DNA of 64,000 nucleotides from Minisyncoccota bacterium (GTDB lineage: Bacteria > Patescibacteriota > Minisyncoccia > Phycocordibacterales > PALSA-1337). The notes below the pieces were generated by a model. The model saw only the letters and a list, made by a program, of their open reading frames with translations, ran no database searches and was not told the origin of the DNA. Position numbers and translations under genes: made by a program. Location of the stretch: assembly GCA_041662725.1 (NCBI GenBank), contig JBAZRX010000001.1, positions 85 to 64,084 of the forward strand, in the 5' to 3' direction. Shown piece by piece: positions 1-8,219 of the stretch (position 1 is its first letter; each line of letters starts with the position of its first letter).

Positions 1-144
1 AAAACCGTTATCCACAGTTACTGCTTGCAGGTTTTTATCGGTAACATAGATATGGCTACAGAGGATAATCGTCGTAAAGATGCTTATTTGTTAACCAAAG
101 GCTACCGATAATGGTGGCTTTTTTTATACTTAAACAAGGATTAA

Positions 145-1059
145 TCAAAACGCAAAAGAAAAATAGCTCGTAACCTCATAGAATTGACTATGCAAAATCT
201 CGCCAGCATTGGTGTGATAGATCAAATCAAAATCGTCTATACCTTTTTTCTCCATAACCATAAGCAGTGCAATGATCGATGGTGGCGAATCTACATATGC
301 ACTATTTAAATTAATTATTTTTTCATAATCCTTAGCTCTCATAAGTTTCAGTGTGATCTCATCATTTATTTCAGCCTGACTTTTATCTTGATAATGAGAA
401 AAATCCATTGAAGCCAATATCACCGTCTTTTTATTTATTCTTGGAACAAGAGTTTCGACCATATTTTTTATTTGTTCCATTTCAAGATTTCCTGAAAGAA
501 TTATTGGAACAACTTTAGCATCAGGAATATAATATTTTATGAATGGCACAATACTTCCAATGGAATGCTCCTTATCAAGTACTTCTTCGTCAAGATAAAG
601 TATTTTCTTATCATTTAATTCTCTAACAAACTCAATATCCGGCTCAACAATCCCAAAAGGAGTTTCCCAGCCAGAAGTACTAGATAAAATCGGTTCTTCA
701 CCAAGTTCATAATGGTTAGGACCAATAAGAATTATTGTCTCTGGTTTTTGTTTCGCCAAATTTTTGAAAAAATCAGCAATAATGAAACTCGGCAACAAAT
801 GATGAGGAACTACCCCACCGATAATCGGCTTGGGGTAGTTTTTATCACTATATTTAACTTTCTCAATCGCATCTGTAAAAGTTGAAGAATCGAAGAAATA
901 AGCTTGATGGGTAGATGAGGCAATAGATTTATTAAGATTTTCTTCCTTAAACTTAACCTCTGTTGTTGGATAGACTACAAATATAAAAATAATGCAGATC
1001 AAAATACTAAATAGTATTTTATACGCGAGATGATATTTTTTTATATTTATCATATCCAT
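145..1059 (-). CDS. MEMO1-family protein (AmmeMemoRadiSam system protein B-like) with N-terminal signal/TM segment
   Basis: 304 aa. Motifs 'IIGGVVPHHLL', 'ILIGPNHYELGEEPILS', 'WETPFGIV' and 'MDFSHY' align with conserved MEMO1/UPF0103 blocks (APHAGY..., LGPSHH..., DxSH). Hydrophobic N-terminus 'ILFSILICIIFIFVV'. 3' end overlaps the start of the A2M gene by 41 nt. Confidence 0.8.
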   Translation of the reverse strand: MDMINIKKYHLAYKILFSILICIIFIFVVYPTTEVKFKEENLNKSIASSTHQAYFFDSSTFTDAIEKVKYSDKNYPKPIIGGVVPHHLLPSFIIADFFKNLAKQKPETIILIGPNHYELGEEPILSSTSGWETPFGIVEPDIEFVRELNDKKILYLDEEVLDKEHSIGSIVPFIKYYIPDAKVVPIILSGNLEMEQIKNMVETLVPRINKKTVILASMDFSHYQDKSQAEINDEITLKLMRAKDYEKIINLNSAYVDSPPSIIALLMVMEKKGIDDFDLIYHTNAGEILHSQFYEVTSYFSFAF

Positions 1060-4000
1060 GTGTTATACCAGCAATAATCAACATTAACAGAATAATATAT
1101 CCCATAACTCTATATTTTGTCTGCATATCACTTACACCTGTTTGATCTCCCTGATTAAATACCGACTTTGATTTCTGTCCCGTAATAGTAACAACATCTG
1201 TTCCTGTACGACCGTTGATCTCTGGTTCGTACATGAGACTAGCACGTGCTGGTGGAACATTGAATGTCCCCCTAGACACAACTCTCGCCTGATAAGTTAA
1301 ATCCATAGTACTATTGTGGACATAAGAGAACGATGCAATAATTCCATTTTTTGTATATTCTCTATCACCTCCCCAGTAATAATACGAGGAAGGATTGTAA
1401 GCAGAAGATGATCTTTCGTTCTCAAAACTCTTATTTATCGGGACAAGTCCTGCTGGTAGTTCATCTTCAATCACAAGATATCGACTTTCAGGAGGAATAT
1501 TCAAAACCCGAATATTAATATCAACAACATCCCCTATCCCAAAACTACTACTATAAGTTCTCGTAATATCCAGACCGTTATTTTTAGAAGCCGAATCTTT
1601 ACCAGTTCTAAATTGATCAAATACAAATGTTGAATAGATTTGATTATCATTCAATGGTTCAATACGAAGTCTTGCACCATGTGTAAGAAGGTTTGGATCA
1701 ATAGAAATTGTTTTAGTATCAAATACTCCCTGAAGTGTTCCGCTGTCTATCATTTTTTCGCCAATCAAAACTTTGTAAGATGTACTACTTCCTTTACTAT
1801 ACTTTTTAGTAAATTCAAGAAGAGCGTCTATAGTTTGTGACGTAGCAAAAGTATTATGCCAATAATCAGATTTCCTTTCAGAAACAAGATATCTAGCGGC
1901 CCCAATCGTCATTTCTTCCGATGCACCAGCCTCAAGCAAAGCTCTCAGAGCCAAAGCTGTGGAAGCTTCACGAGACCCAAAGAATTTCCAAGTTCCAGCA
2001 TTCCAATACTTCTTACCATTTTCTTCATATGCAGTTTCCTGTAGAAGATCATAGCCATTGGTACTTCGATCTGTAAAACCGTTTCGAATATTAGACAATA
2101 ACCCTAAAGCTATTATATCTGGTGTTGAAGTACCAAAGTTTTTTATTTCTTCCTTTCCAAGTGGAGAATCGAGAAGTGACAAGGTATAAATGTAGCCAAT
2201 ACGTGTTATAGGATCACTAATCTTCGGTAACTCATTTTCAAATCGTGTTTTTGTTGATTCATACAAATCTCTTGGAACAACTGCACCTATTTTCTCAGCT
2301 CTCTTCAGATATTCGATAACATAACCAGTGATAAATGGGTTAACTTCTCCATACCACCATCCCCAACCACCTCGGCCATCTTTCAGAATGGATAACCTAT
2401 CTATTCCAGTTTTCATAAAACCCTGCAAATCCTTATCGCCAATTATTTTTCTGAAGATAGATTCATTTTCTTTGATAATCACCGCCGGCACAAAACGACT
2501 CGTGGTTTGTTCCACACATCCATATGGATATTGCAACAAATAATCAATAGCTGGAGGTAAAGTACCAAACAATGAGGCTGACAGATATAGATTGGCTTTT
2601 GATGATGAAGCATTCGTATCTGGGAATCGAATCGTATCGTAAATCACATTACCCTCTCCAACAAACGAAGTCCTCTCATTAAAACCAAATTCTTGTACAG
2701 GAATCTTTACACTCACAATATCTTTTTCTTCAGGATTATTATTGGACTGTAAACTTGTTTTAACTTCAGCAATTCCAGGTTTAAGAACATTCAATTTCCA
2801 TAAAGTTTCAACGAAACTATTATTATCAATAATAAGAGATACTGTTTTATTACCAATCACACTGCCTCCCATGAAAGACAGAGCATTTTCGAATTGTTTA
2901 CTTGATCCAGTAAAGTTATGAGAGAGAGTGGATATAGTCACATCATCTCCAATTCTCAGAATATTAGGAAGGATCGGACGAACTATTACGGATTTTGTTA
3001 CAAGCAAATCAGTAGCATTTTCACCGACTTTAGTATCGTAAGTCACGGCCAAACCTTGGACTAACCAAGTAGTCAAATTGTCTGGTAATACAAATCTTAC
3101 AACGGCATTACCATTTGCATCTGTTTGTATTTGAGGATTCCAATATGCTACATCAGCGAAACTATCCCTTACACTTCCCCCATCACCTTTTTGGTTGTGA
3201 ACATATATGTTACCAGCAAAATATGTTGCCTTGTTTTCTACTGTGAGATTATAAACCGCTGTTTTACCAGCTTGCCACTCGATTGAATTTACTTTTACTT
3301 CTTTGTTATTTTTATCAATCAATAAATCACCAATCTGGATATTCCCCACATCTTTCCAGCTATTATTAACCCACACACGATGCTCTGGAGTAACTTTTAT
3401 ATTGCCATTCAATATCAAATAACCATCCGTAATTATTGAATGAACTTTTTTTACAGTAGCTTTTACTAATGTTGGATCAATTTCACTCCTTCTGGTCAAA
3501 ACCTGATCGCCAACTTTAATATCTTTTATCTGTTTTAGACCATTTGGTGTAAGTATCAAAGTTTCTCCAACAAAACATCCTTTTTCAGCTCCGCCACTTG
3601 ATGTAATCCCTTCAAATGAATTTTTATAGCTTGTAGAATTATATCTCTTACCCCAAAACACATCTATAATTTTGGCCCTCTGTTCGCTTATAAGCTCATA
3701 GAGTGATTTATCAACAGCCCATACAGCAACTTCAGAAGAGATTGGCAAACCGGAAGAATCAGTAGTTTTTATCCGAAGCTCCACAGTTTCTCCTGGAGCA
3801 TACTTTTTAGCACCTGGAATAATAGATACATTTATTTCTTTACTACTCTTACTGAGAGTTACTGCTTTTGATGAGGAATTGAATAAATGATTTCCTTTAG
3901 TTGTAAAAGTAGAGGCAGATACAAAAACATTTGGCAGATCAGTATTGAATGTAGGGACATAGATTGTACTTGTATATCCAGGAACTGATGTTACAAAATA

Positions 4001-6004
4001 TCTTCTGACCCTATCACGTTCAATAGTTATTAAGACATCCTTATTAGGATCTCCTAGAGAGATGTTTACAGGAACATTCTCGCCAGGAGAAAATTCTCTA
4101 TCCTGTGCTTTCAACGTAACAACTCCAGAACTGTTCTCGGTGTAATAAGGCACATTCTCTTTTGTAATCCATAAAGATAATTTCTTTTCATAAATATTAC
4201 CTTGTCGATCAGAAACTTTAAGATACAAACTATGACTACCTGTTTTCTGAGGAACGTACACTACTACCGCTTCACCTTTGTCATTTGTAGTAACAGAAAA
4301 GTTTGGTAGGTTTTCCTCAACAAAATGATAATTATAATAACCTTGTGAATTTAAAAGATTTTTATCATCTCTTAACCACTCTCCACGAATTGGAAACACA
4401 GAAATATTTACATTAGAAACTGGAGCATCAGAGTGAGATAGAAGCGTTAGTGGTATTGATATTGATTGCTCAGCTTTTGCATAATATTCGTAGTTACCAG
4501 CACGGATACTATATTCATTTCCTCGTAGCAAAATATTTTTACTAGCTCTAACAGGATTACCACTCTGATCTTGATAACTCGCTTCCACAGAAATAATAGA
4601 AAAGGCATCTCTAGGAAGCATATACGTACCAAAAACAATTTCAGCTTCACCTTTATCATTCAATTCAATCTCTTCATTTTTGATTTCATTTTTTCCGTAA
4701 TAATACCCGCTATAACCATATTTTTTGTAATATTCTAAATTCTCCTCTGTGTAATATTGATTCGCAGAATATTTGACTGAATATTTAACTTTTCCACCAG
4801 AGATTGCTTGACCAGAAAAATACTTACCAGAAAAATGAAGTGAGACGTTTTCTCCTTGTAAAAATTCATCTTTTTCTACATTAATGTCTAAATTATATTC
4901 AGGTTTTCGATAATATTCGACATTAAAATCTGTAACTGTACGTAAATACCATTCCCTATCAGATGTTTCGCCTATATTTACTGATATTTGGTAGGTTCCA
5001 GGACGTGCAGTATTTTCAAGACTGTATTCACCAGATATTGTCCCATTAGCAGAAATTGGATATTTCTTCTCAAATAACAGATTCGTCGAATTGTAATCCT
5101 TATACACCTTTACTGTAACCAATCCAGTAGGAATACTATACTCCGCATTGTCATCATTTCGAATAATTGCTTTAAAATAAACTTTATCACCGGGAGTATA
5201 GAGAGGTCGATCTGTAAAAAGTAAGTACTTTGTATTTACCTTGGAAGTACTGAAGTTTTGGTAATTATAATAATCACTCGGTAGATTCAATATTATCAAC
5301 GTCTGACCTTCTGATGAATTTACAAACCCAACATCGGCATTTACTGATTGTAATGTTTTTGCAATCCCGTCTGAATCTATTGGCGAACTAGAAAGATAAG
5401 TAGGTTTATCTTTGAGACTAAATATTTCAATGCTTCCAGAATTAACTTTTTTCCCTGTAACTATGTTTTGAGTCCATAAAATAATTTCCTTATTACCTTC
5501 TCTGGCCATAGTACCGATCGATGTACGTACCACAGCTGAAAATGTTTGTTCACCATCTGAACTGTATGCCCGCAAAAGCCAAAAACCAACTCCTTCTATC
5601 GGTAACAATGTTTTTTCTCCTATCCCCTTAGTATCAATTGTCACAATTTTTTTCAACTTAGAAACATCCGGAACATTCGCTATGTACTTTTCACTATTAT
5701 CAACCTTATATGTCAAAAAATTCAAAAATTCATCTTTTGAAAAATTATAAACATCTATTTTTACATCTCGTTTAACATCATCATAAGCAGAAATCTTTAT
5801 TGATGGCTCTTGATGTGTCCCCCATACAATCAATCTGCGACTTGAATATTGACCTTCAACAGCATCAACAATACCAATTTTTCTATAAGTATTATCTGCT
5901 GAAACATAATGACTAGAATTTAACAACACCACTATTGCAGTTGTAATCAATAAAACCACCGCAATAACTTTTGAAAGTCTATTCAAATTCACATTTTTGG
6001 GCAT
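1019..6004 (-). CDS. alpha-2-macroglobulin family protein (thioester-containing), membrane-anchored, with internal Hint/BIL domain
   Basis: 1661 aa. N-terminal hydrophobic anchor. 'YPYGCVEQTT' thioester CxEQ motif. 'VLPDNLTTW' A2M-domain motif. Size matches bacterial A2M (ECAM/YfhM, ~1650 aa). Repeated Ig-like beta-rich segments. Confidence 0.85.
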   Translation of the reverse strand: MPKNVNLNRLSKVIAVVLLITTAIVVLLNSSHYVSADNTYRKIGIVDAVEGQYSSRRLIVWGTHQEPSIKISAYDDVKRDVKIDVYNFSKDEFLNFLTYKVDNSEKYIANVPDVSKLKKIVTIDTKGIGEKTLLPIEGVGFWLLRAYSSDGEQTFSAVVRTSIGTMAREGNKEIILWTQNIVTGKKVNSGSIEIFSLKDKPTYLSSSPIDSDGIAKTLQSVNADVGFVNSSEGQTLIILNLPSDYYNYQNFSTSKVNTKYLLFTDRPLYTPGDKVYFKAIIRNDDNAEYSIPTGLVTVKVYKDYNSTNLLFEKKYPISANGTISGEYSLENTARPGTYQISVNIGETSDREWYLRTVTDFNVEYYRKPEYNLDINVEKDEFLQGENVSLHFSGKYFSGQAISGGKVKYSVKYSANQYYTEENLEYYKKYGYSGYYYGKNEIKNEEIELNDKGEAEIVFGTYMLPRDAFSIISVEASYQDQSGNPVRASKNILLRGNEYSIRAGNYEYYAKAEQSISIPLTLLSHSDAPVSNVNISVFPIRGEWLRDDKNLLNSQGYYNYHFVEENLPNFSVTTNDKGEAVVVYVPQKTGSHSLYLKVSDRQGNIYEKKLSLWITKENVPYYTENSSGVVTLKAQDREFSPGENVPVNISLGDPNKDVLITIERDRVRRYFVTSVPGYTSTIYVPTFNTDLPNVFVSASTFTTKGNHLFNSSSKAVTLSKSSKEINVSIIPGAKKYAPGETVELRIKTTDSSGLPISSEVAVWAVDKSLYELISEQRAKIIDVFWGKRYNSTSYKNSFEGITSSGGAEKGCFVGETLILTPNGLKQIKDIKVGDQVLTRRSEIDPTLVKATVKKVHSIITDGYLILNGNIKVTPEHRVWVNNSWKDVGNIQIGDLLIDKNNKEVKVNSIEWQAGKTAVYNLTVENKATYFAGNIYVHNQKGDGGSVRDSFADVAYWNPQIQTDANGNAVVRFVLPDNLTTWLVQGLAVTYDTKVGENATDLLVTKSVIVRPILPNILRIGDDVTISTLSHNFTGSSKQFENALSFMGGSVIGNKTVSLIIDNNSFVETLWKLNVLKPGIAEVKTSLQSNNNPEEKDIVSVKIPVQEFGFNERTSFVGEGNVIYDTIRFPDTNASSSKANLYLSASLFGTLPPAIDYLLQYPYGCVEQTTSRFVPAVIIKENESIFRKIIGDKDLQGFMKTGIDRLSILKDGRGGWGWWYGEVNPFITGYVIEYLKRAEKIGAVVPRDLYESTKTRFENELPKISDPITRIGYIYTLSLLDSPLGKEEIKNFGTSTPDIIALGLLSNIRNGFTDRSTNGYDLLQETAYEENGKKYWNAGTWKFFGSREASTALALRALLEAGASEEMTIGAARYLVSERKSDYWHNTFATSQTIDALLEFTKKYSKGSSTSYKVLIGEKMIDSGTLQGVFDTKTISIDPNLLTHGARLRIEPLNDNQIYSTFVFDQFRTGKDSASKNNGLDITRTYSSSFGIGDVVDINIRVLNIPPESRYLVIEDELPAGLVPINKSFENERSSSAYNPSSYYYWGGDREYTKNGIIASFSYVHNSTMDLTYQARVVSRGTFNVPPARASLMYEPEINGRTGTDVVTITGQKSKSVFNQGDQTGVSDMQTKYRVMGYIILLMLIIAGITHGYDKYKKISSRV
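2507..2518 (-). other. thioester motif CVEQ of A2M
   Basis: Codons for C-V-E-Q; Cys at 2516..2518 on the minus strand. Confidence 0.8.
3194..3577 (-). other. Hint (intein-like / bacterial intein-like) domain embedded in the A2M ORF (residues 810-937)
   Basis: Begins 'CFVGETLILTPNGLK' (Hint block A with Cys1) and ends 'NIYVHN' (block G, terminal Asn). 128 aa with no endonuclease domain. +1 residue is Gln. Confidence 0.65.
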
Positions 6005-6094: not shown

Positions 6095-6598
6095 TTACCT
6101 CACCAACGATAAATCACCGTTAACAATTACAGGTTTCATTCCTATAATTTCTTGTTTATAAGTAAGTTCTGATGATATTGAATTTAATATGTATATTTTC
6201 TTCCTGAGATAAAAAGCAACACCAATCTCAATCAAAGTGTTACCACCAACATATCCGCTAATACCTCTTTTATCGGGATTGATAACCAAGATCCCATCAC
6301 ACCAATCAATCTTCTCGTAATGATCTCTGATAGCCCCTTCTTTGAGATCCCAGATCTTGTGTCCTATCGGAAATCCGTCAATACCGCCATTCTGTTCGAT
6401 ATATTGACCAAAATAGACTTTTTTACCACCACCAAATTCTGGCGGAACTTCTAAAGCAAGTTCAGGTATTTTCACTTCAAAACCACGTTTGACTAACTCA
6501 TCCCTAGCTTGTTCCATTTCTTTATAAAAACCAATACTGCCACAAATTGTTATTTTCATAATTTTATTTATTAGATTATCTTTAATTCTTTTAACCAA
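6095..6598 (-). CDS. nucleoside 2-deoxyribosyltransferase-like / DNPH1(Rcl)-like protein
   Basis: 167 aa. 'MKITICGS...' start like NDT-family proteins. 'YVGGNTLIEIGVAFYLRKKIYIL' matches the catalytic-Glu block (GTxxExGxAxxxGKP). True start may be the internal Met (~6559). Overlaps the NUDIX gene by 28 nt. Confidence 0.5.
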   Translation of the reverse strand: MVKRIKDNLINKIMKITICGSIGFYKEMEQARDELVKRGFEVKIPELALEVPPEFGGGKKVYFGQYIEQNGGIDGFPIGHKIWDLKEGAIRDHYEKIDWCDGILVINPDKRGISGYVGGNTLIEIGVAFYLRKKIYILNSISSELTYKQEIIGMKPVIVNGDLSLVR

Positions 6599-7038
6599 TC
6601 ATACCAGACCGGCTCCAAACCTGGCGACTCTTCCCACTCATTTTGCTTGATATCTCCACTAAGATATCTTTCGGTTTTATCTGCAAGTAATTTCAAATCA
6701 TCAGATGAATAAAATCCCGCTTGCTTCGTTTCATCTTCGCTCCTTTTTACCTCTCCGCTAGTTTCAACTTTATATATTTTCCAATAATGCCAACTACCAC
6801 CTTCCCGACGACACGGATTTTCTTTTCGACCTTCAATCAATAATTCAATATTTTTTGAATCTAATCCAACTTCTTCTTTGAGCTCACGTTCTGCGGAATG
6901 TTCAAAGGAACTATCTAGATCGAGATGACCAGCTGGAGGTGCAAAACCAAATGGCGGTCTTTTTCTTTCGATCAGCAGTAACTTCCCATCTTTCCAGACC
7001 AACATCCCGACGCTCTTGTTGTCACATTTATTTGTCAT
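6571..7038 (-). CDS. NUDIX hydrolase
   Basis: 155 aa. Nudix box 'GHLDLDSSFEHSAERELKEEVGL' (GX5EX7REUXEEXGU). Confidence 0.8.
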   Translation of the reverse strand: MTNKCDNKSVGMLVWKDGKLLLIERKRPPFGFAPPAGHLDLDSSFEHSAERELKEEVGLDSKNIELLIEGRKENPCRREGGSWHYWKIYKVETSGEVKRSEDETKQAGFYSSDDLKLLADKTERYLSGDIKQNEWEESPGLEPVWYDWLKELKII

Positions 7039-7178
7039 GTTATTTTAATTTCTTTACAAATTCTACTGGTGAAGAAATAATTTCCCTGAAAAGAATGTAA
7101 CTGCACAATAGCTGTTTTCATGATTGATAATTATACTACATCGATATAATAAATAACCCTAGACTTATGGCCTTTTTA

Positions 7179-8219
7179 TTACACAACTTTTCTTATTTTT
7201 TTTGAAGATGATTTTCTAACCTTTACACTTTCGATTGCTTTCAATGCAACTTCATCAAAATCGACATCTTGTTTGGCTTCTATCTGTTTATATTCATCAA
7301 ACTTTTTCTCTGCAATTTCCTTCATTAATTCATGAGAAATTCTACCAGCTGACTGCAAAATATCTCTCCCATTCAACTTCAAGAAACCATCCAGCTTTTC
7401 TATCCAATTTTTCATAGTCATAGGTATTCTACGACGAGCTTGTTCGGTAGCGAAAATCAGATACTGTTCAACAAGAGCGTTGAGTTGTGTTAATTCCTCA
7501 ATATTATAATAATTTTTAGCAATTATAACTTCTTCTTTTGTCGGTTTGGCTCCCCTCCAATTAGTAAGTCCTAAATTATTTTTACCACTATCAATCCTAC
7601 CAACAACAATTTCCGCCGCAGTGTTCCCTGTAACCGCATAATGTACTTTATTTTGTACTGTTTTAAAAAATAAAAGACTTTGATCATCTGTTGGATCATA
7701 ATCAACACTGGTTGCGTATATATCAGTAATCTTCCTGTAAAATCGCTTCTCAGAAGAGCGGATATCAGCAATCCTCTGTGTTAATTCTTCAAAATAATCA
7801 AATGGCAAGTCGGGATTTTTCAGGCGCTCATCATCCAGAACAAAGCCTTTGACTACATACTCACTAAGCCTAGCTGTTGCCCATTGGCGAAAAGCAGTAG
7901 CGACAGAACTTTTGACACGATAGCCTACAGAAATAATCATATCTAAATTATAGTACTCAACATCCCTAGAAACCGCTCTACTACCTTCTTTTTGAACTGT
8001 AAAGAATTTCTTTACAGTTGAATCTTCTGATAATTCTTTCTCCTCAATTACATTTTTTATATGCTGACCAATGTTTTGCTTCGTTGTTTGGAATAAGTCA
8101 GCTAAAGCATTTTGTGTCAACCACACCGTATCACCATCAAAACGAACATCGATTTTGACGTTTCCTTTTTGATCTTTATATATAACGATTTGTGAGTTGG
8201 AAGCTTTCATCCCTATCAT
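7179..8219 (-). CDS. RhuM-family (virulence-protein RhuM-like) protein
   Basis: 346 aa. 'YYNLDMIISVGYRVKS' and overall length/composition typical of Virulence_RhuM family proteins. Confidence 0.65.
   Translation of the reverse strand: MIGMKASNSQIVIYKDQKGNVKIDVRFDGDTVWLTQNALADLFQTTKQNIGQHIKNVIEEKELSEDSTVKKFFTVQKEGSRAVSRDVEYYNLDMIISVGYRVKSSVATAFRQWATARLSEYVVKGFVLDDERLKNPDLPFDYFEELTQRIADIRSSEKRFYRKITDIYATSVDYDPTDDQSLLFFKTVQNKVHYAVTGNTAAEIVVGRIDSGKNNLGLTNWRGAKPTKEEVIIAKNYYNIEELTQLNALVEQYLIFATEQARRRIPMTMKNWIEKLDGFLKLNGRDILQSAGRISHELMKEIAEKKFDEYKQIEAKQDVDFDEVALKAIESVKVRKSSSKKIRKVV

Follow-up and report, generated by a model that had tools for sequence, protein, structure and literature searches.

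The left end of the window, the 64,000-nucleotide stretch of Minisyncoccota DNA analyzed here, carries a gene for a thioester-type alpha-2-macroglobulin (A2M)-like protein followed by a gene of the MEMO family (Table 1). As originally predicted, the MEMO-like open reading frame lies on the strand of the A2M gene and begins within its 3′ end; the strand, which the prediction had left unnamed, is the minus strand for both. From this overlap, translational coupling of the two genes appears likely. The NCBI call of the MEMO protein (P0001, 100% identity) begins at the second ATG. Among the sequence blocks by which the gene had been recognized, GPxH (present as GPNH) and DFSH were found, whereas APHxG holds only approximately, the actual block being VPHH.

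Table 1. Features of the A2M-MEMO locus (positions refer to the window).
Feature	Position	Strand	Remarks
3′ end of convergent ORF and terminator-like hairpin	1..122	plus	stop 109-111; hairpin with T-run 97-122
MEMO-family gene	145..1059	minus	304 aa from first ATG (1059); NCBI start at ATG 1053, 302 aa
Predicted metal-site codons of MEMO protein	289..804 (span)	minus	His84 (802-804), His114 (712-714), Asp255 (289-291); also His163, Asp217, His220
Predicted signal-anchor (TM helix) of MEMO protein	970..1026	minus	aa 10-28, AYKILFSILICIIFIFVVY; preceded by Lys-rich N-terminus
A2M 3′/MEMO 5′ overlap	1019..1059	minus	41 nt (35 nt with NCBI start); codes for A2M cytoplasmic tail after C-terminal TM
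Thioester-type A2M-like gene	1019..6004	minus	1661 aa; Pfam MG2, A2M_BRD, PT-HINT, A2M, TED_complement, bMG10
A2M C-terminal TM anchor	1055..1105	minus	MGYIILLMLIIAGITHG, then basic tail
CVEQ thioester motif of A2M	2507..2518	minus	aa 1163
Hint domain of A2M	3194..3577	minus	128 aa between A2M_BRD and A2M domains (bait-region position); PT-HINT E=8e-10
A2M N-terminal signal/anchor	5912..5971	minus	KVIAVVLLITTAIVVLLNSS, then YVSA

The 304-aa protein belongs to the MEMO family, as seen from its matches to Pfam Memo PF01875 (E=3.1e-33; 115.6 bits, cut-off 27) and TIGR04336 (E=5e-39; 134.2 bits, cut-off 26), and has a MEMO/LigB-like fold. With the stricter equivalog model NF001987 it scored 120 bits, below the cut-off of 295. 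The name assigned by NCBI is AmmeMemoRadiSam system protein B. At the N-terminus, a hydrophobic segment was found with a window score of 2.95. Comparable segments are present in 105 of 120 homologues, and in some, e.g., P0065 and P0108, a lipobox stands in place of the TM segment. In the AlphaFold2 model of the protein, residues 4-27 are helical and lead into a disordered linker, and no in-frame start exists between the hydrophobic segment and the conserved H..FF motif of the reading frame. Taken together, the conservation, the modeled helix and the lack of an alternative start argue that the hydrophobic N-terminus is genuine and not the artefact of a mis-called start, as had been considered. 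The predicted topology places the N-terminus inside and the catalytic domain outside the cell.

Within an alignment of 40 sequences, His84, His114, and Asp255 as well as His163, Asp217, and His220 form invariant columns. In a sequence-based alignment the first three correspond to H49, H81, and C244 of human MEMO1 and the latter three to H131, D189, and H192, so that both metal-site histidines are conserved and the position of the cysteine is occupied by Asp. For the human sequence used here, the residue numbers and residues 36-204 agree with the PDB alignment. Comparison with the PDB was performed by profile search, a single-sequence phmmer search having given noise only, and yielded 15-16% identity to human MEMO1 (PDB 3BCZ, 7KQ8, 7L5C), which, in contrast to the protein described here, is cytosolic and soluble. 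The metal ligands of MEMO1 are His49, His81, and Cys244 (PMC11081632). The His/His/Cys site would hence be converted to His/His/Asp in the anchored clade, and the replacement of C244 by an invariant Asp would restore a dioxygenase-type 2-His-1-carboxylate triad. The protein would share the combination that marks LigB-type class III extradiol dioxygenases, a LigB fold bearing a 2-His-1-carboxylate Fe(II) site. For MEMO1, no dioxygenase activity was observed with standard substrates; enzymatic activity is known for no member of the MEMO family, and the molecular function of the family is stated as unknown (PMC11081632).

The adjoining A2M possesses the CxEQ motif of thioester macroglobulins, which was present in all A2M partners of this class (class I); C-terminal hydrophobic segments are typical of them as well. 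Its inserted Hint domain shows Cys1, TxxH, a terminal His-Asn and a Gln at position +1. T/SxxH was found in 52 of 52 distinct Hint domains compared, and the +1 residue is Q, D, E, or G in 25 of 26. With no Cys, Ser, or Thr at +1, as canonical splicing inteins would require, the domain is, judged by its sequence, non-splicing. A literature search for macroglobulins with a bacterial intein-like domain returned nothing relevant. The sequence ‘GAExGG...R..F.D’, invariant at the A2M bait position, was considered as a recognition site for the MEMO protein and rejected, since Gly-rich stretches precede the same R..F.D also in MEMO-less A2Ms of the PBP1c and PGA_cap types. A role in anti-phage defence was likewise discarded, as PADLOC gave no match for either protein.

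The combination of the two genes is not peculiar to this genome. In 74 non-redundant GTDB loci chosen by MEMO similarity, an A2M-like gene (approximately 1600-1800 aa) lies upstream of the MEMO gene on the same strand at position -1 in 71 cases and, including a near-adjacent one, in 72. These loci span at least five phyla, namely Patescibacteria, Bacillota, Chloroflexota, Acidobacteriota, and WOR-1. Out of 71 scored pairs, 54 overlap, 35 of them by a 4-nt ATGA, and 13 others are at most 35 nt apart, where the calling of ORFs by their longest form may exaggerate all overlaps but those of -4 and -1. Reciprocally, a MEMO gene was found beside 31 of the 33 CPR-type A2M genes whose flanks could be read, two being without one, and beside none of approximately 40 soil-type A2Ms, the partners of which are PBP1c or DUF1175/PBP-SpoIID. 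One locus (L048) contains an anchored MEMO without an A2M. The pairwise identities of the MEMO and A2M proteins are correlated (Spearman 0.56), pointing to co-diversification, and the nearest MEMO neighbor belongs to the same A2M class in 49 of 51 cases. In Firmicutes and Chloroflexi, the partners are true A2Ms (Big_5, bMG3, MG2, A2M_BRD, A2M) without CxEQ (class II); partners lacking the thioester occur in Clostridia/Peptococcaceae/Desulfitobacterium, Dehalococcoidia, one Acidobacteriota MAG, and WOR-1. The wide occurrence of the pair is reflected by no fewer than 630 MEMO clusters (50% identity, E≤1e-30) and at least 570 GTDB species-level matches. Hence, the two-gene extracytoplasmic module initially proposed is upheld with regard to adjacency in both directions of the comparison, and it is not confined to CPR, as pairs occur in Firmicutes, Chloroflexi, Acidobacteriota, and WOR-1, too. 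The A2M and MEMO genes form a conserved two-gene operon, also outside of CPR. No published description of such a pairing was found in the literature.

Apart from A2M and MEMO, the MEMO-bearing loci have no widely conserved gene in common. The left neighbor in the window is convergent and ends in a hairpin, which makes the MEMO gene the last of its transcription unit here; an intrinsic terminator on the minus strand was not detected after it, the sole hairpin at this place being that of the convergent gene. For the same reason, the expectation that further operon partners would lie past the left edge does not hold in this genome. Other neighbors of the pair in the window encode a 167-aa protein without Pfam match, a NUDIX protein, and RhuM. 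That the partners AMMECR1 and radical SAM are not visible in the window had been stated before and applies to the loci of the relatives, too: the AMMECR1 motif LRGCIG is absent from 167 locus sequences (2.26 Mb in total), just four scattered CxxxCxxC-type motifs of the radical SAM kind, none of them consistent, occur in these 2.26 Mb, and neither AMMECR1 nor radical-SAM Pfam domains were found among the MEMO neighbors. Judged from these loci, the MEMO protein does not belong to an AmmeMemoRadiSam system, in spite of its database name. Among the relatives, a CapA-like PGA_cap gene recurs as third partner, which is fused to MEMO in L034, L071, and L120, adjoins the pair in approximately 20 loci and stands in the place of MEMO in L121; none was found in the window, and it is present in only about one fifth of the loci. 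The pair is also adjoined by an ECF sigma factor gene in approximately 10 loci and by a YkuD+Peptidase_S11 gene in L001/L008. A2M loci without MEMO contain PBP1c (L135) or Transpeptidase+SpoIID (L144), and DUF1175 was seen only in the latter, the MEMO-less soil-type locus tested.

Two types of bacterial macroglobulin operons have been described from studies of Gram-negatives, one combining a thioester A2M with PBP1c, for which a trap plus repair logic was proposed, and the Mag operon with a thioester-less A2M (PMC5764988). The locus in the window resembles the co-transcribed genes of type I (E. coli YfhM/ECAM; Salmonella Sa-A2M with pbpC) in that a CxEQ macroglobulin at the cytoplasmic membrane is combined with one membrane-anchored, envelope-facing enzyme. 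In contrast to type I, this partner is a MEMO-fold metalloprotein instead of a GT51/transpeptidase PBP, the A2M is anchored by a C-terminal TM segment and contains an inserted Hint domain, and the hosts are CPR and monoderm-type lineages, not Proteobacteria. An adjacent pbpC (Transgly + Transpeptidase + BiPBP_C) is missing, PBP1c being found only beside the MEMO-less A2M of L135. With type II (Pseudomonas magABCDEF), the loci share a single-pass membrane protein in the same operon and, in the case of the class II A2Ms of Firmicutes and Chloroflexi, the lack of the thioester that also characterizes MagD. However, the operon comprises two genes instead of six, an enzyme-like metal site is conserved in the partner, the A2M of the window does contain a thioester, and MEMO is the only conserved neighbor kept by the class II relatives. 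Compared to AmmeMemoRadiSam protein B of the AMMECR1/MEMO1-like/radical-SAM triad, with which it shares family, fold, and a TIGR04336 score above cut-off, the protein is not a soluble cytoplasmic one, given its predicted TM helix (or lipobox), and would be membrane-anchored and extracytoplasmic; it lacks AMMECR1 and radical-SAM neighbors, has Asp for Cys as third ligand, and comes with an obligate A2M neighbor.

On balance, we lean towards the reading that the anchored MEMO protein serves as dedicated accessory enzyme of its macroglobulin class, encoded in a co-translated operon and located at the outer face of the membrane. Both products would face outward from the cytoplasmic membrane, the A2M-like protein as a protease-trapping macroglobulin (in the window with thioester, N-terminal signal, and C-terminal TM anchor) and the MEMO-fold protein as a type-II-anchored metalloprotein, or as a lipoprotein in some lineages. 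MEMO would thereby take the slot that is held elsewhere by PBP1c (type I), by Mag proteins including the membrane-anchored MagB (type II), or by PBP-SpoIID (soil-type). The two proteins may be produced in fixed proportion and act next to each other at the surface of the membrane; we infer that they interact physically or functionally, and that the MEMO protein catalyzes a reaction on a substrate. Since many hosts are strict anaerobes, its metal centre would perform a non-oxidative step. As target, either an envelope polymer guarded by the macroglobulin or the macroglobulin itself could be envisaged, the latter being stabilized or processed in the manner of MagB acting on MagD. We rank the envelope polymer slightly higher, as the partner enzyme is not constant across A2M clades and fusion or proximity of MEMO to a CapA-like surface enzyme recurs, which amounts to an analogy by guilt of association.

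MagB is a single-pass membrane protein that binds MagD 1:1 and stabilizes, localizes and controls the cleavage of it (PMC5764988). By this precedent, the MEMO protein could alternatively be a maturation or docking factor that binds the macroglobulin 1:1, retains it at the membrane and is required to keep it stable or to control its cleavage, with the metal site serving binding or macroglobulin modification and not the cell wall. This is possible, if doubtful. The strict 1:1 adjacency with ATGA overlap is typical of stoichiometric complexes and MEMO co-diversifies with the A2M class, and the cleft of MEMO1 reportedly binds peptides (Qiu et al. 2008). On the other hand, A2Ms of both classes have membrane anchors of their own and do not need MEMO for anchoring, and the fusion of PGA_cap to MEMO in several lineages, together with the place after the A2M that PGA_cap takes without MEMO in L121, is more in line with interchangeable enzymes than with a specific chaperone. 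Rather unlikely appears a metalloenzyme acting on the adjoining macroglobulin or its trapped protease, perhaps by modification or processing of the Gly-rich linker conserved at the bait position. Should this hold, the MEMO family would have its first biochemical activity, with a hint at the action of eukaryotic MEMO1 on its peptide ligands.

A further explanation is that of an O2-dependent extradiol-type dioxygenase, cleaving a catechol-like compound, or of a redox/metal-buffering protein, sequestering Cu/Fe, at the cell surface that is merely co-regulated with the macroglobulin in an envelope-stress regulon. We regard this as improbable. Many hosts, such as Peptococcaceae, Desulfitobacterium, Syntrophothermus, Dehalococcoidia, and groundwater CPR, are strict anaerobes, which argues against O2-dependent ring cleavage of catechols; in addition, aromatic-catabolism genes are absent from the neighborhoods, and the near-obligate overlapping adjacency exceeds what co-regulation needs. 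An ordinary cytoplasmic AmmeMemoRadiSam protein B that neighbors the A2M by chance, with a start-codon artefact and its partners elsewhere, would agree with the TIGR04336 score and the NCBI name and is hardly credible, being already contradicted by the conserved TM segment, the lipobox variants and the lack of an alternative start, by the lack of AMMECR1 and of a consistent radical SAM in the 2.26 Mb of loci, by the A2M adjacency in both directions, and by the low NF001987 score.

The A2M-MEMO pair thus represents a third type of macroglobulin operon in bacteria, one that has apparently not been described. This architecture is widespread, has its centre in CPR and monoderm-type lineages, and includes thioester as well as thioester-less macroglobulins. 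It also defines a MEMO subfamily that is tied to one predicted compartment and to one partner, and whose dioxygenase-like His/His/Asp site is found in hosts that are for the most part anaerobic. The automatic annotation of hundreds of anchored-MEMO genes as ‘AmmeMemoRadiSam system protein B’ is misleading for this clade. With the macroglobulin, the enigmatic MEMO family gains a defined partner, which opens complex, substrate, and metal to concrete experiments.

The genes at the left end of the window are arranged as originally predicted, with the MEMO ORF overlapping the 3′ end of the A2M ORF on the same strand (see the table). The identical NCBI protein, P0001, starts at the second ATG (1053), comprises 302 aa and is labeled 'AmmeMemoRadiSam system protein B [Candidatus Paceibacterota bacterium]'. 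The 304-aa protein matched Pfam Memo PF01875 with 115.6 bits (cut-off 27) and TIGR04336 with 134 bits (cut-off 26), and for the stricter equivalog NF001987 it scored 120 bits, below the cut-off of 295. The window A2M contains the domains MG2, A2M_BRD, A2M, TED_complement, bMG10 and PT-HINT/Hint as well as a thioester motif (CVEQ, aa 1163). Since the left neighbor is convergent, MEMO is the last gene of its transcription unit, and the idea that further partners in the same unit lie beyond the left window edge has to be abandoned. The same-strand genes upstream of A2M do not include PBP1c, the partner in type I A2M operons, and no PGA_cap was detected within the window.

Coordinates of the described features (window positions, or positions in fetched homologous loci where an L number is given)
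Feature	Position	Strand	Remarks
Hairpin with T-run	97-122		after + strand ORF
ORF entering from left edge	stop 109-111	+	convergent to MEMO gene
MEMO ORF	145..1059	-	304 aa
A2M/MEMO ORF overlap	1019..1059	-	41 nt; 35 nt from NCBI start
A2M ORF	1019..6004	-	1661 aa
Hint domain within A2M	3194..3577	-	aa 810-937; 128 aa
167-aa ORF upstream of A2M	within 6095..8219	-	no Pfam match
NUDIX hydrolase gene, overlapping, upstream of A2M	6571..7038	-	
RhuM-family 'virulence protein' gene, upstream of A2M	7179..8219	-	E=1.8e-106
PGA_cap fused to MEMO C-terminus	L034:2170-3990; L071:10007-11773; L120:755-2608		607 aa; 589 aa; 618 aa
PGA_cap directly downstream of MEMO	e.g. L012, L014, L027, L089, L091, L099, L102, L108		
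PGA_cap convergent just past MEMO	L013, L088, L050		
PGA_cap upstream of A2M	L001, L008, L009, L087, L097		
PGA_cap in MEMO's place after A2M	L121:11409-12413		
YkuD + Peptidase_S11 gene	L001:3551-4981; L008:3393-4826	-	divergent from A2M; closest CPR relatives
ECF sigma factor genes (examples)	L076:4182-4742; L032:2-502; L113:3304-3861		

A pattern scan covering one genome per GTDB species yielded at least 570 relatives of the MEMO protein, of which the best 80 loci were taken with 10-kb flanks. tblastn searches with the window A2M (Hint removed) gave matches upstream on the same strand at nearly all of them. When the ORFs, called with a simple routine, were clustered all against all, an A2M-like cluster (median 1647 aa) was found at position -1 in 71 of the 74 non-redundant loci among these best ones, and no other cluster occurred in more than 10 of the 74. 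L026 and L074 carry the A2M-like gene at -2, with a short ORF in between, and L048 is the only locus without such a gene upstream of the anchored MEMO. There (L048:4599-5621), the MEMO gene is flanked by small unrelated ORFs. Overlaps were observed for 54 of the 71 pairs (35 by the 4-nt ATGA, 5 by 1 nt); 13 further pairs are spaced by 0-35 nt and 4 more widely. The pair is also present in six assemblies for P0003, the closest sequenced relative (67% identity).

In the reverse direction, metagenomes were scanned with an alignment of A2Ms, which gave 80 loci, and those A2Ms were scored that have at least ~31% identity to that of the window and whose flank spans 1 kb or more or shows part of a gene. 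A MEMO gene lies beside 31 of these window-like A2Ms (downstream of 29, upstream of two, L113 and L120); two, L100 and L121, have none. It was also found beside four Hint-bearing, thioester-less A2Ms (L126, L127, L133, L154). Since no MEMO was present beside ~40 A2Ms of 23-28% identity from the same scan, the association is specific to particular A2M clades and not a property of A2Ms generally. Pairwise identities of MEMO and A2M correlate (Spearman 0.56) and the nearest MEMO neighbor has the same A2M class in 49 of 51 pairs, which indicates a long-standing partnership, although vertical co-inheritance alone would have the same effect. As a measure of the size of the MEMO clade, a full HMMER pass over 1.84 billion representatives retrieved 630, 2783 and 6347 proteins at E-value limits of 1e-30, 1e-10 and 1e-3, respectively.

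The AmmeMemoRadiSam gene triad, the normal place of MEMO proteins, is absent at these loci, as had been noted for the window. In six-frame translations of the 166 loci and the window (2.26 Mb), LRGCIG, the AMMECR1 hallmark, did not occur, the strict radical-SAM pattern CxxxCxxC occurred four times in inconsistent placement, once in a MEMO-less locus, and the annotated neighbors of P0003 in the six assemblies contained neither domain.

The hydrophobic N-terminus of the MEMO protein is real and not an artefact of a mis-called start. A Lys-rich N-terminus precedes the segment AYKILFSILICIIFIFVVY (aa 10-28), and the window ORF offers no in-frame start between this segment and H..FF, the conserved motif with which the MEMO core begins. 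With a 17-residue N-terminal window and a Kyte-Doolittle mean of at least 1.8 as criterion, such a segment was found in 105 of 120 homologues, most exceptions being visibly truncated. Two homologues have a lipobox-like sequence in its place (P0065 '..ITGC', P0108 '..AAGC'), which independently points to export. An AlphaFold2 model from a 40-sequence alignment (pLDDT 93.8, pTM 0.84) shows a helix (4-27), a low-confidence linker (~28-46) and a compact domain, which by the positive-inside rule probably faces outward. In the A2M, an N-terminal signal or anchor and, at the C-terminus, a TM segment with a basic tail behind it would place the body in the same compartment as the MEMO domain.

The A2M partners fall into two classes. 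Class I partners come from CPR contigs, possess CxEQ and usually have a C-terminal TM segment and a Hint insertion, whereas class II A2Ms lack CxEQ and match the window A2M by BLAST over the N-terminal half only. Pfam detected Big_5, bMG3, MG2, A2M_BRD and A2M in class II partners, with a weak bMG10 in one of four scanned; they are macroglobulins without a thioester. Their hosts comprise Clostridia, Peptococcaceae, Desulfitobacterium, Tepidanaerobacter, Syntrophothermus, Symbiobacteriaceae and Dehalococcoidia/Chloroflexi as well as one Acidobacteriota MAG, WOR-1 and some Patescibacteria. The contigs L013, L015, L023, L026, L028 and L033 are labeled Nevskiaceae, Gammaproteobacteria or Bdellovibrionales; these labels look unreliable, since the contigs carry CPR-type A2M-Hint-MEMO loci and have a GC content of 32-46%.

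For the MEMO metal site, the window protein was aligned to PDB MEMO1 by profile and to the human sequence by MAFFT; in the human sequence used, the numbers of all six site residues check out and residues 36-204 agree with the PDB alignment. MEMO1 residues H49, H81, H131, D189, H192 and C244 ('TICGRHPI') correspond to H84, H114, H163, D217, H220 and D255 ('YVDSPPSI') of the window protein. All of these are invariant in the 40-sequence alignment, which takes in CPR, Firmicutes and Chloroflexi, except H163, which is conserved at >=90%. MEMO1 binds Fe or Cu via H49, H81 and C244, for which LigB-type enzymes have the equivalent 2-His-1-Glu ligands (PMC11081632). By homology, H84, H114 and D255 probably form one metal site, so that the anchored clade would have the classical non-haem iron triad His/His/Asp in contrast to the unusual His/His/Cys of MEMO1.

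The Hint domain of the window A2M lies between 'GAEKG' and 'QKGDGG..R..F.D', at the bait-region position that separates A2M_BRD from the A2M domain, where Hint-less relatives read 'GGAEQGGEGGSERKDFRD'. It was also seen in L008-L044, L056, L062, L071, L081, L087-L120, L126, L127, L133 and L154, always flanked by '...AE.GG' and '(Q/D/E/G)KG..R..F.D'. In 26 distinct homologues it measures 127-129 aa; the -1 residue is Gly in all 26, whereas at +1 there is Q/D/E/G in 25 of them (Gln in the window) and Ser in one. The T/SxxH block-B motif is kept in 52 of 52 distinct Hint domains from both locus sets, which were picked by Cys1 and the terminal His-Asn/Gln; in the window Cys1, TxxH and His-Asn are intact. 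A canonical splicing intein can be ruled out, as the +1 nucleophile (Cys/Ser/Thr) is missing in 25 of 26. The domain resembles autoprocessing modules of the Hedgehog/BIL-like type, here incorporated in a macroglobulin. It could split the A2M into two chains or generate a reactive Gly-Cys thioester.

PGA_cap (PF09587, CapA-like) recurs near the pairs in four arrangements, among them fusions to MEMO, and in L121 takes MEMO's place; ~590-aa proteins also appear among the HMMER family representatives. Next to the A2M, the closest CPR relatives encode a protein of 476-477 aa in which an L,D-transpeptidase domain (YkuD) is fused with a D-Ala-D-Ala carboxypeptidase domain (Peptidase_S11). An ECF-type sigma-70 gene directly adjoins the pair in L113 and ~10 Peptococcaceae-type loci, which suggests envelope-stress control; some of these loci have a histidine kinase further upstream. 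All these neighbors point to the cell envelope. The soil-metagenome thioester A2Ms (23-28% identity) have no MEMO. L144 (5146-14794), the single such MEMO-less Transpeptidase+SpoIID locus scanned against Pfam, encodes, in this order, DUF1175, A2M, a 286-aa protein without Pfam match and a 973-aa Transpeptidase+SpoIID protein, a macroglobulin with a peptidoglycan enzyme distinct from the PBP1c arrangement; judging by their ORF sizes, L128, L131, L136, L138, L148, L149 and L164 seem to be laid out alike. Canonical PBP1c accompanies the MEMO-less A2M of L135.

Across phyla, and whether viewed from MEMO or from A2M, an overlapping gene pair is conserved that encodes two exported or anchored proteins, the smaller of which carries, by sequence, a conserved MEMO-type metal site. 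The observation behind the original prediction of an extracytoplasmic two-gene module is confirmed, and its interpretation is supported and extends beyond CPR to the class II hosts. The predicted translational coupling is suggested by the overlaps, with ATGA in half of the pairs, the window MEMO start having no obvious Shine-Dalgarno sequence. Known macroglobulin operons combine a trap with envelope-facing partners: for PBP1c peptidoglycan repair has been proposed, and MagB, a single-pass membrane protein of the type II Mag operon, binds MagD in a 1:1 ratio and controls how stable it is, where it is located and how it is cleaved (PMC5764988). We infer that A2M and MEMO act jointly at the membrane surface, and propose the MEMO-fold protein as the accessory enzyme of its macroglobulin and counterpart of PBP1c or MagB. 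It might be an envelope-polymer enzyme deployed together with the trap, as favored by the interchangeability of enzyme partners between A2M clades, the MEMO-PGA_cap fusions and replacement, and the neighboring L,D-transpeptidase/carboxypeptidase. Alternatively, it might act on the macroglobulin itself, for which the strict 1:1 coupling, the co-diversification and the MagB precedent speak. O2-dependent dioxygenase chemistry is unlikely as general function, since many hosts of the pairs are strict anaerobes. Moreover, no dioxygenase activity was found for MEMO1 (PMC11081632).

Among 8 million open-access papers and preprints, no link of macroglobulins to MEMO or AmmeMemoRadiSam was found, nor one to intein-like domains. 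The bacterial A2M operons described comprise two types, both from Gram-negatives (PMC5764988). We therefore regard A2M-MEMO as a third macroglobulin operon architecture and the anchored clade as a distinct, mis-annotated MEMO subfamily; the Hint domain of the A2M may equal the pairing in interest.
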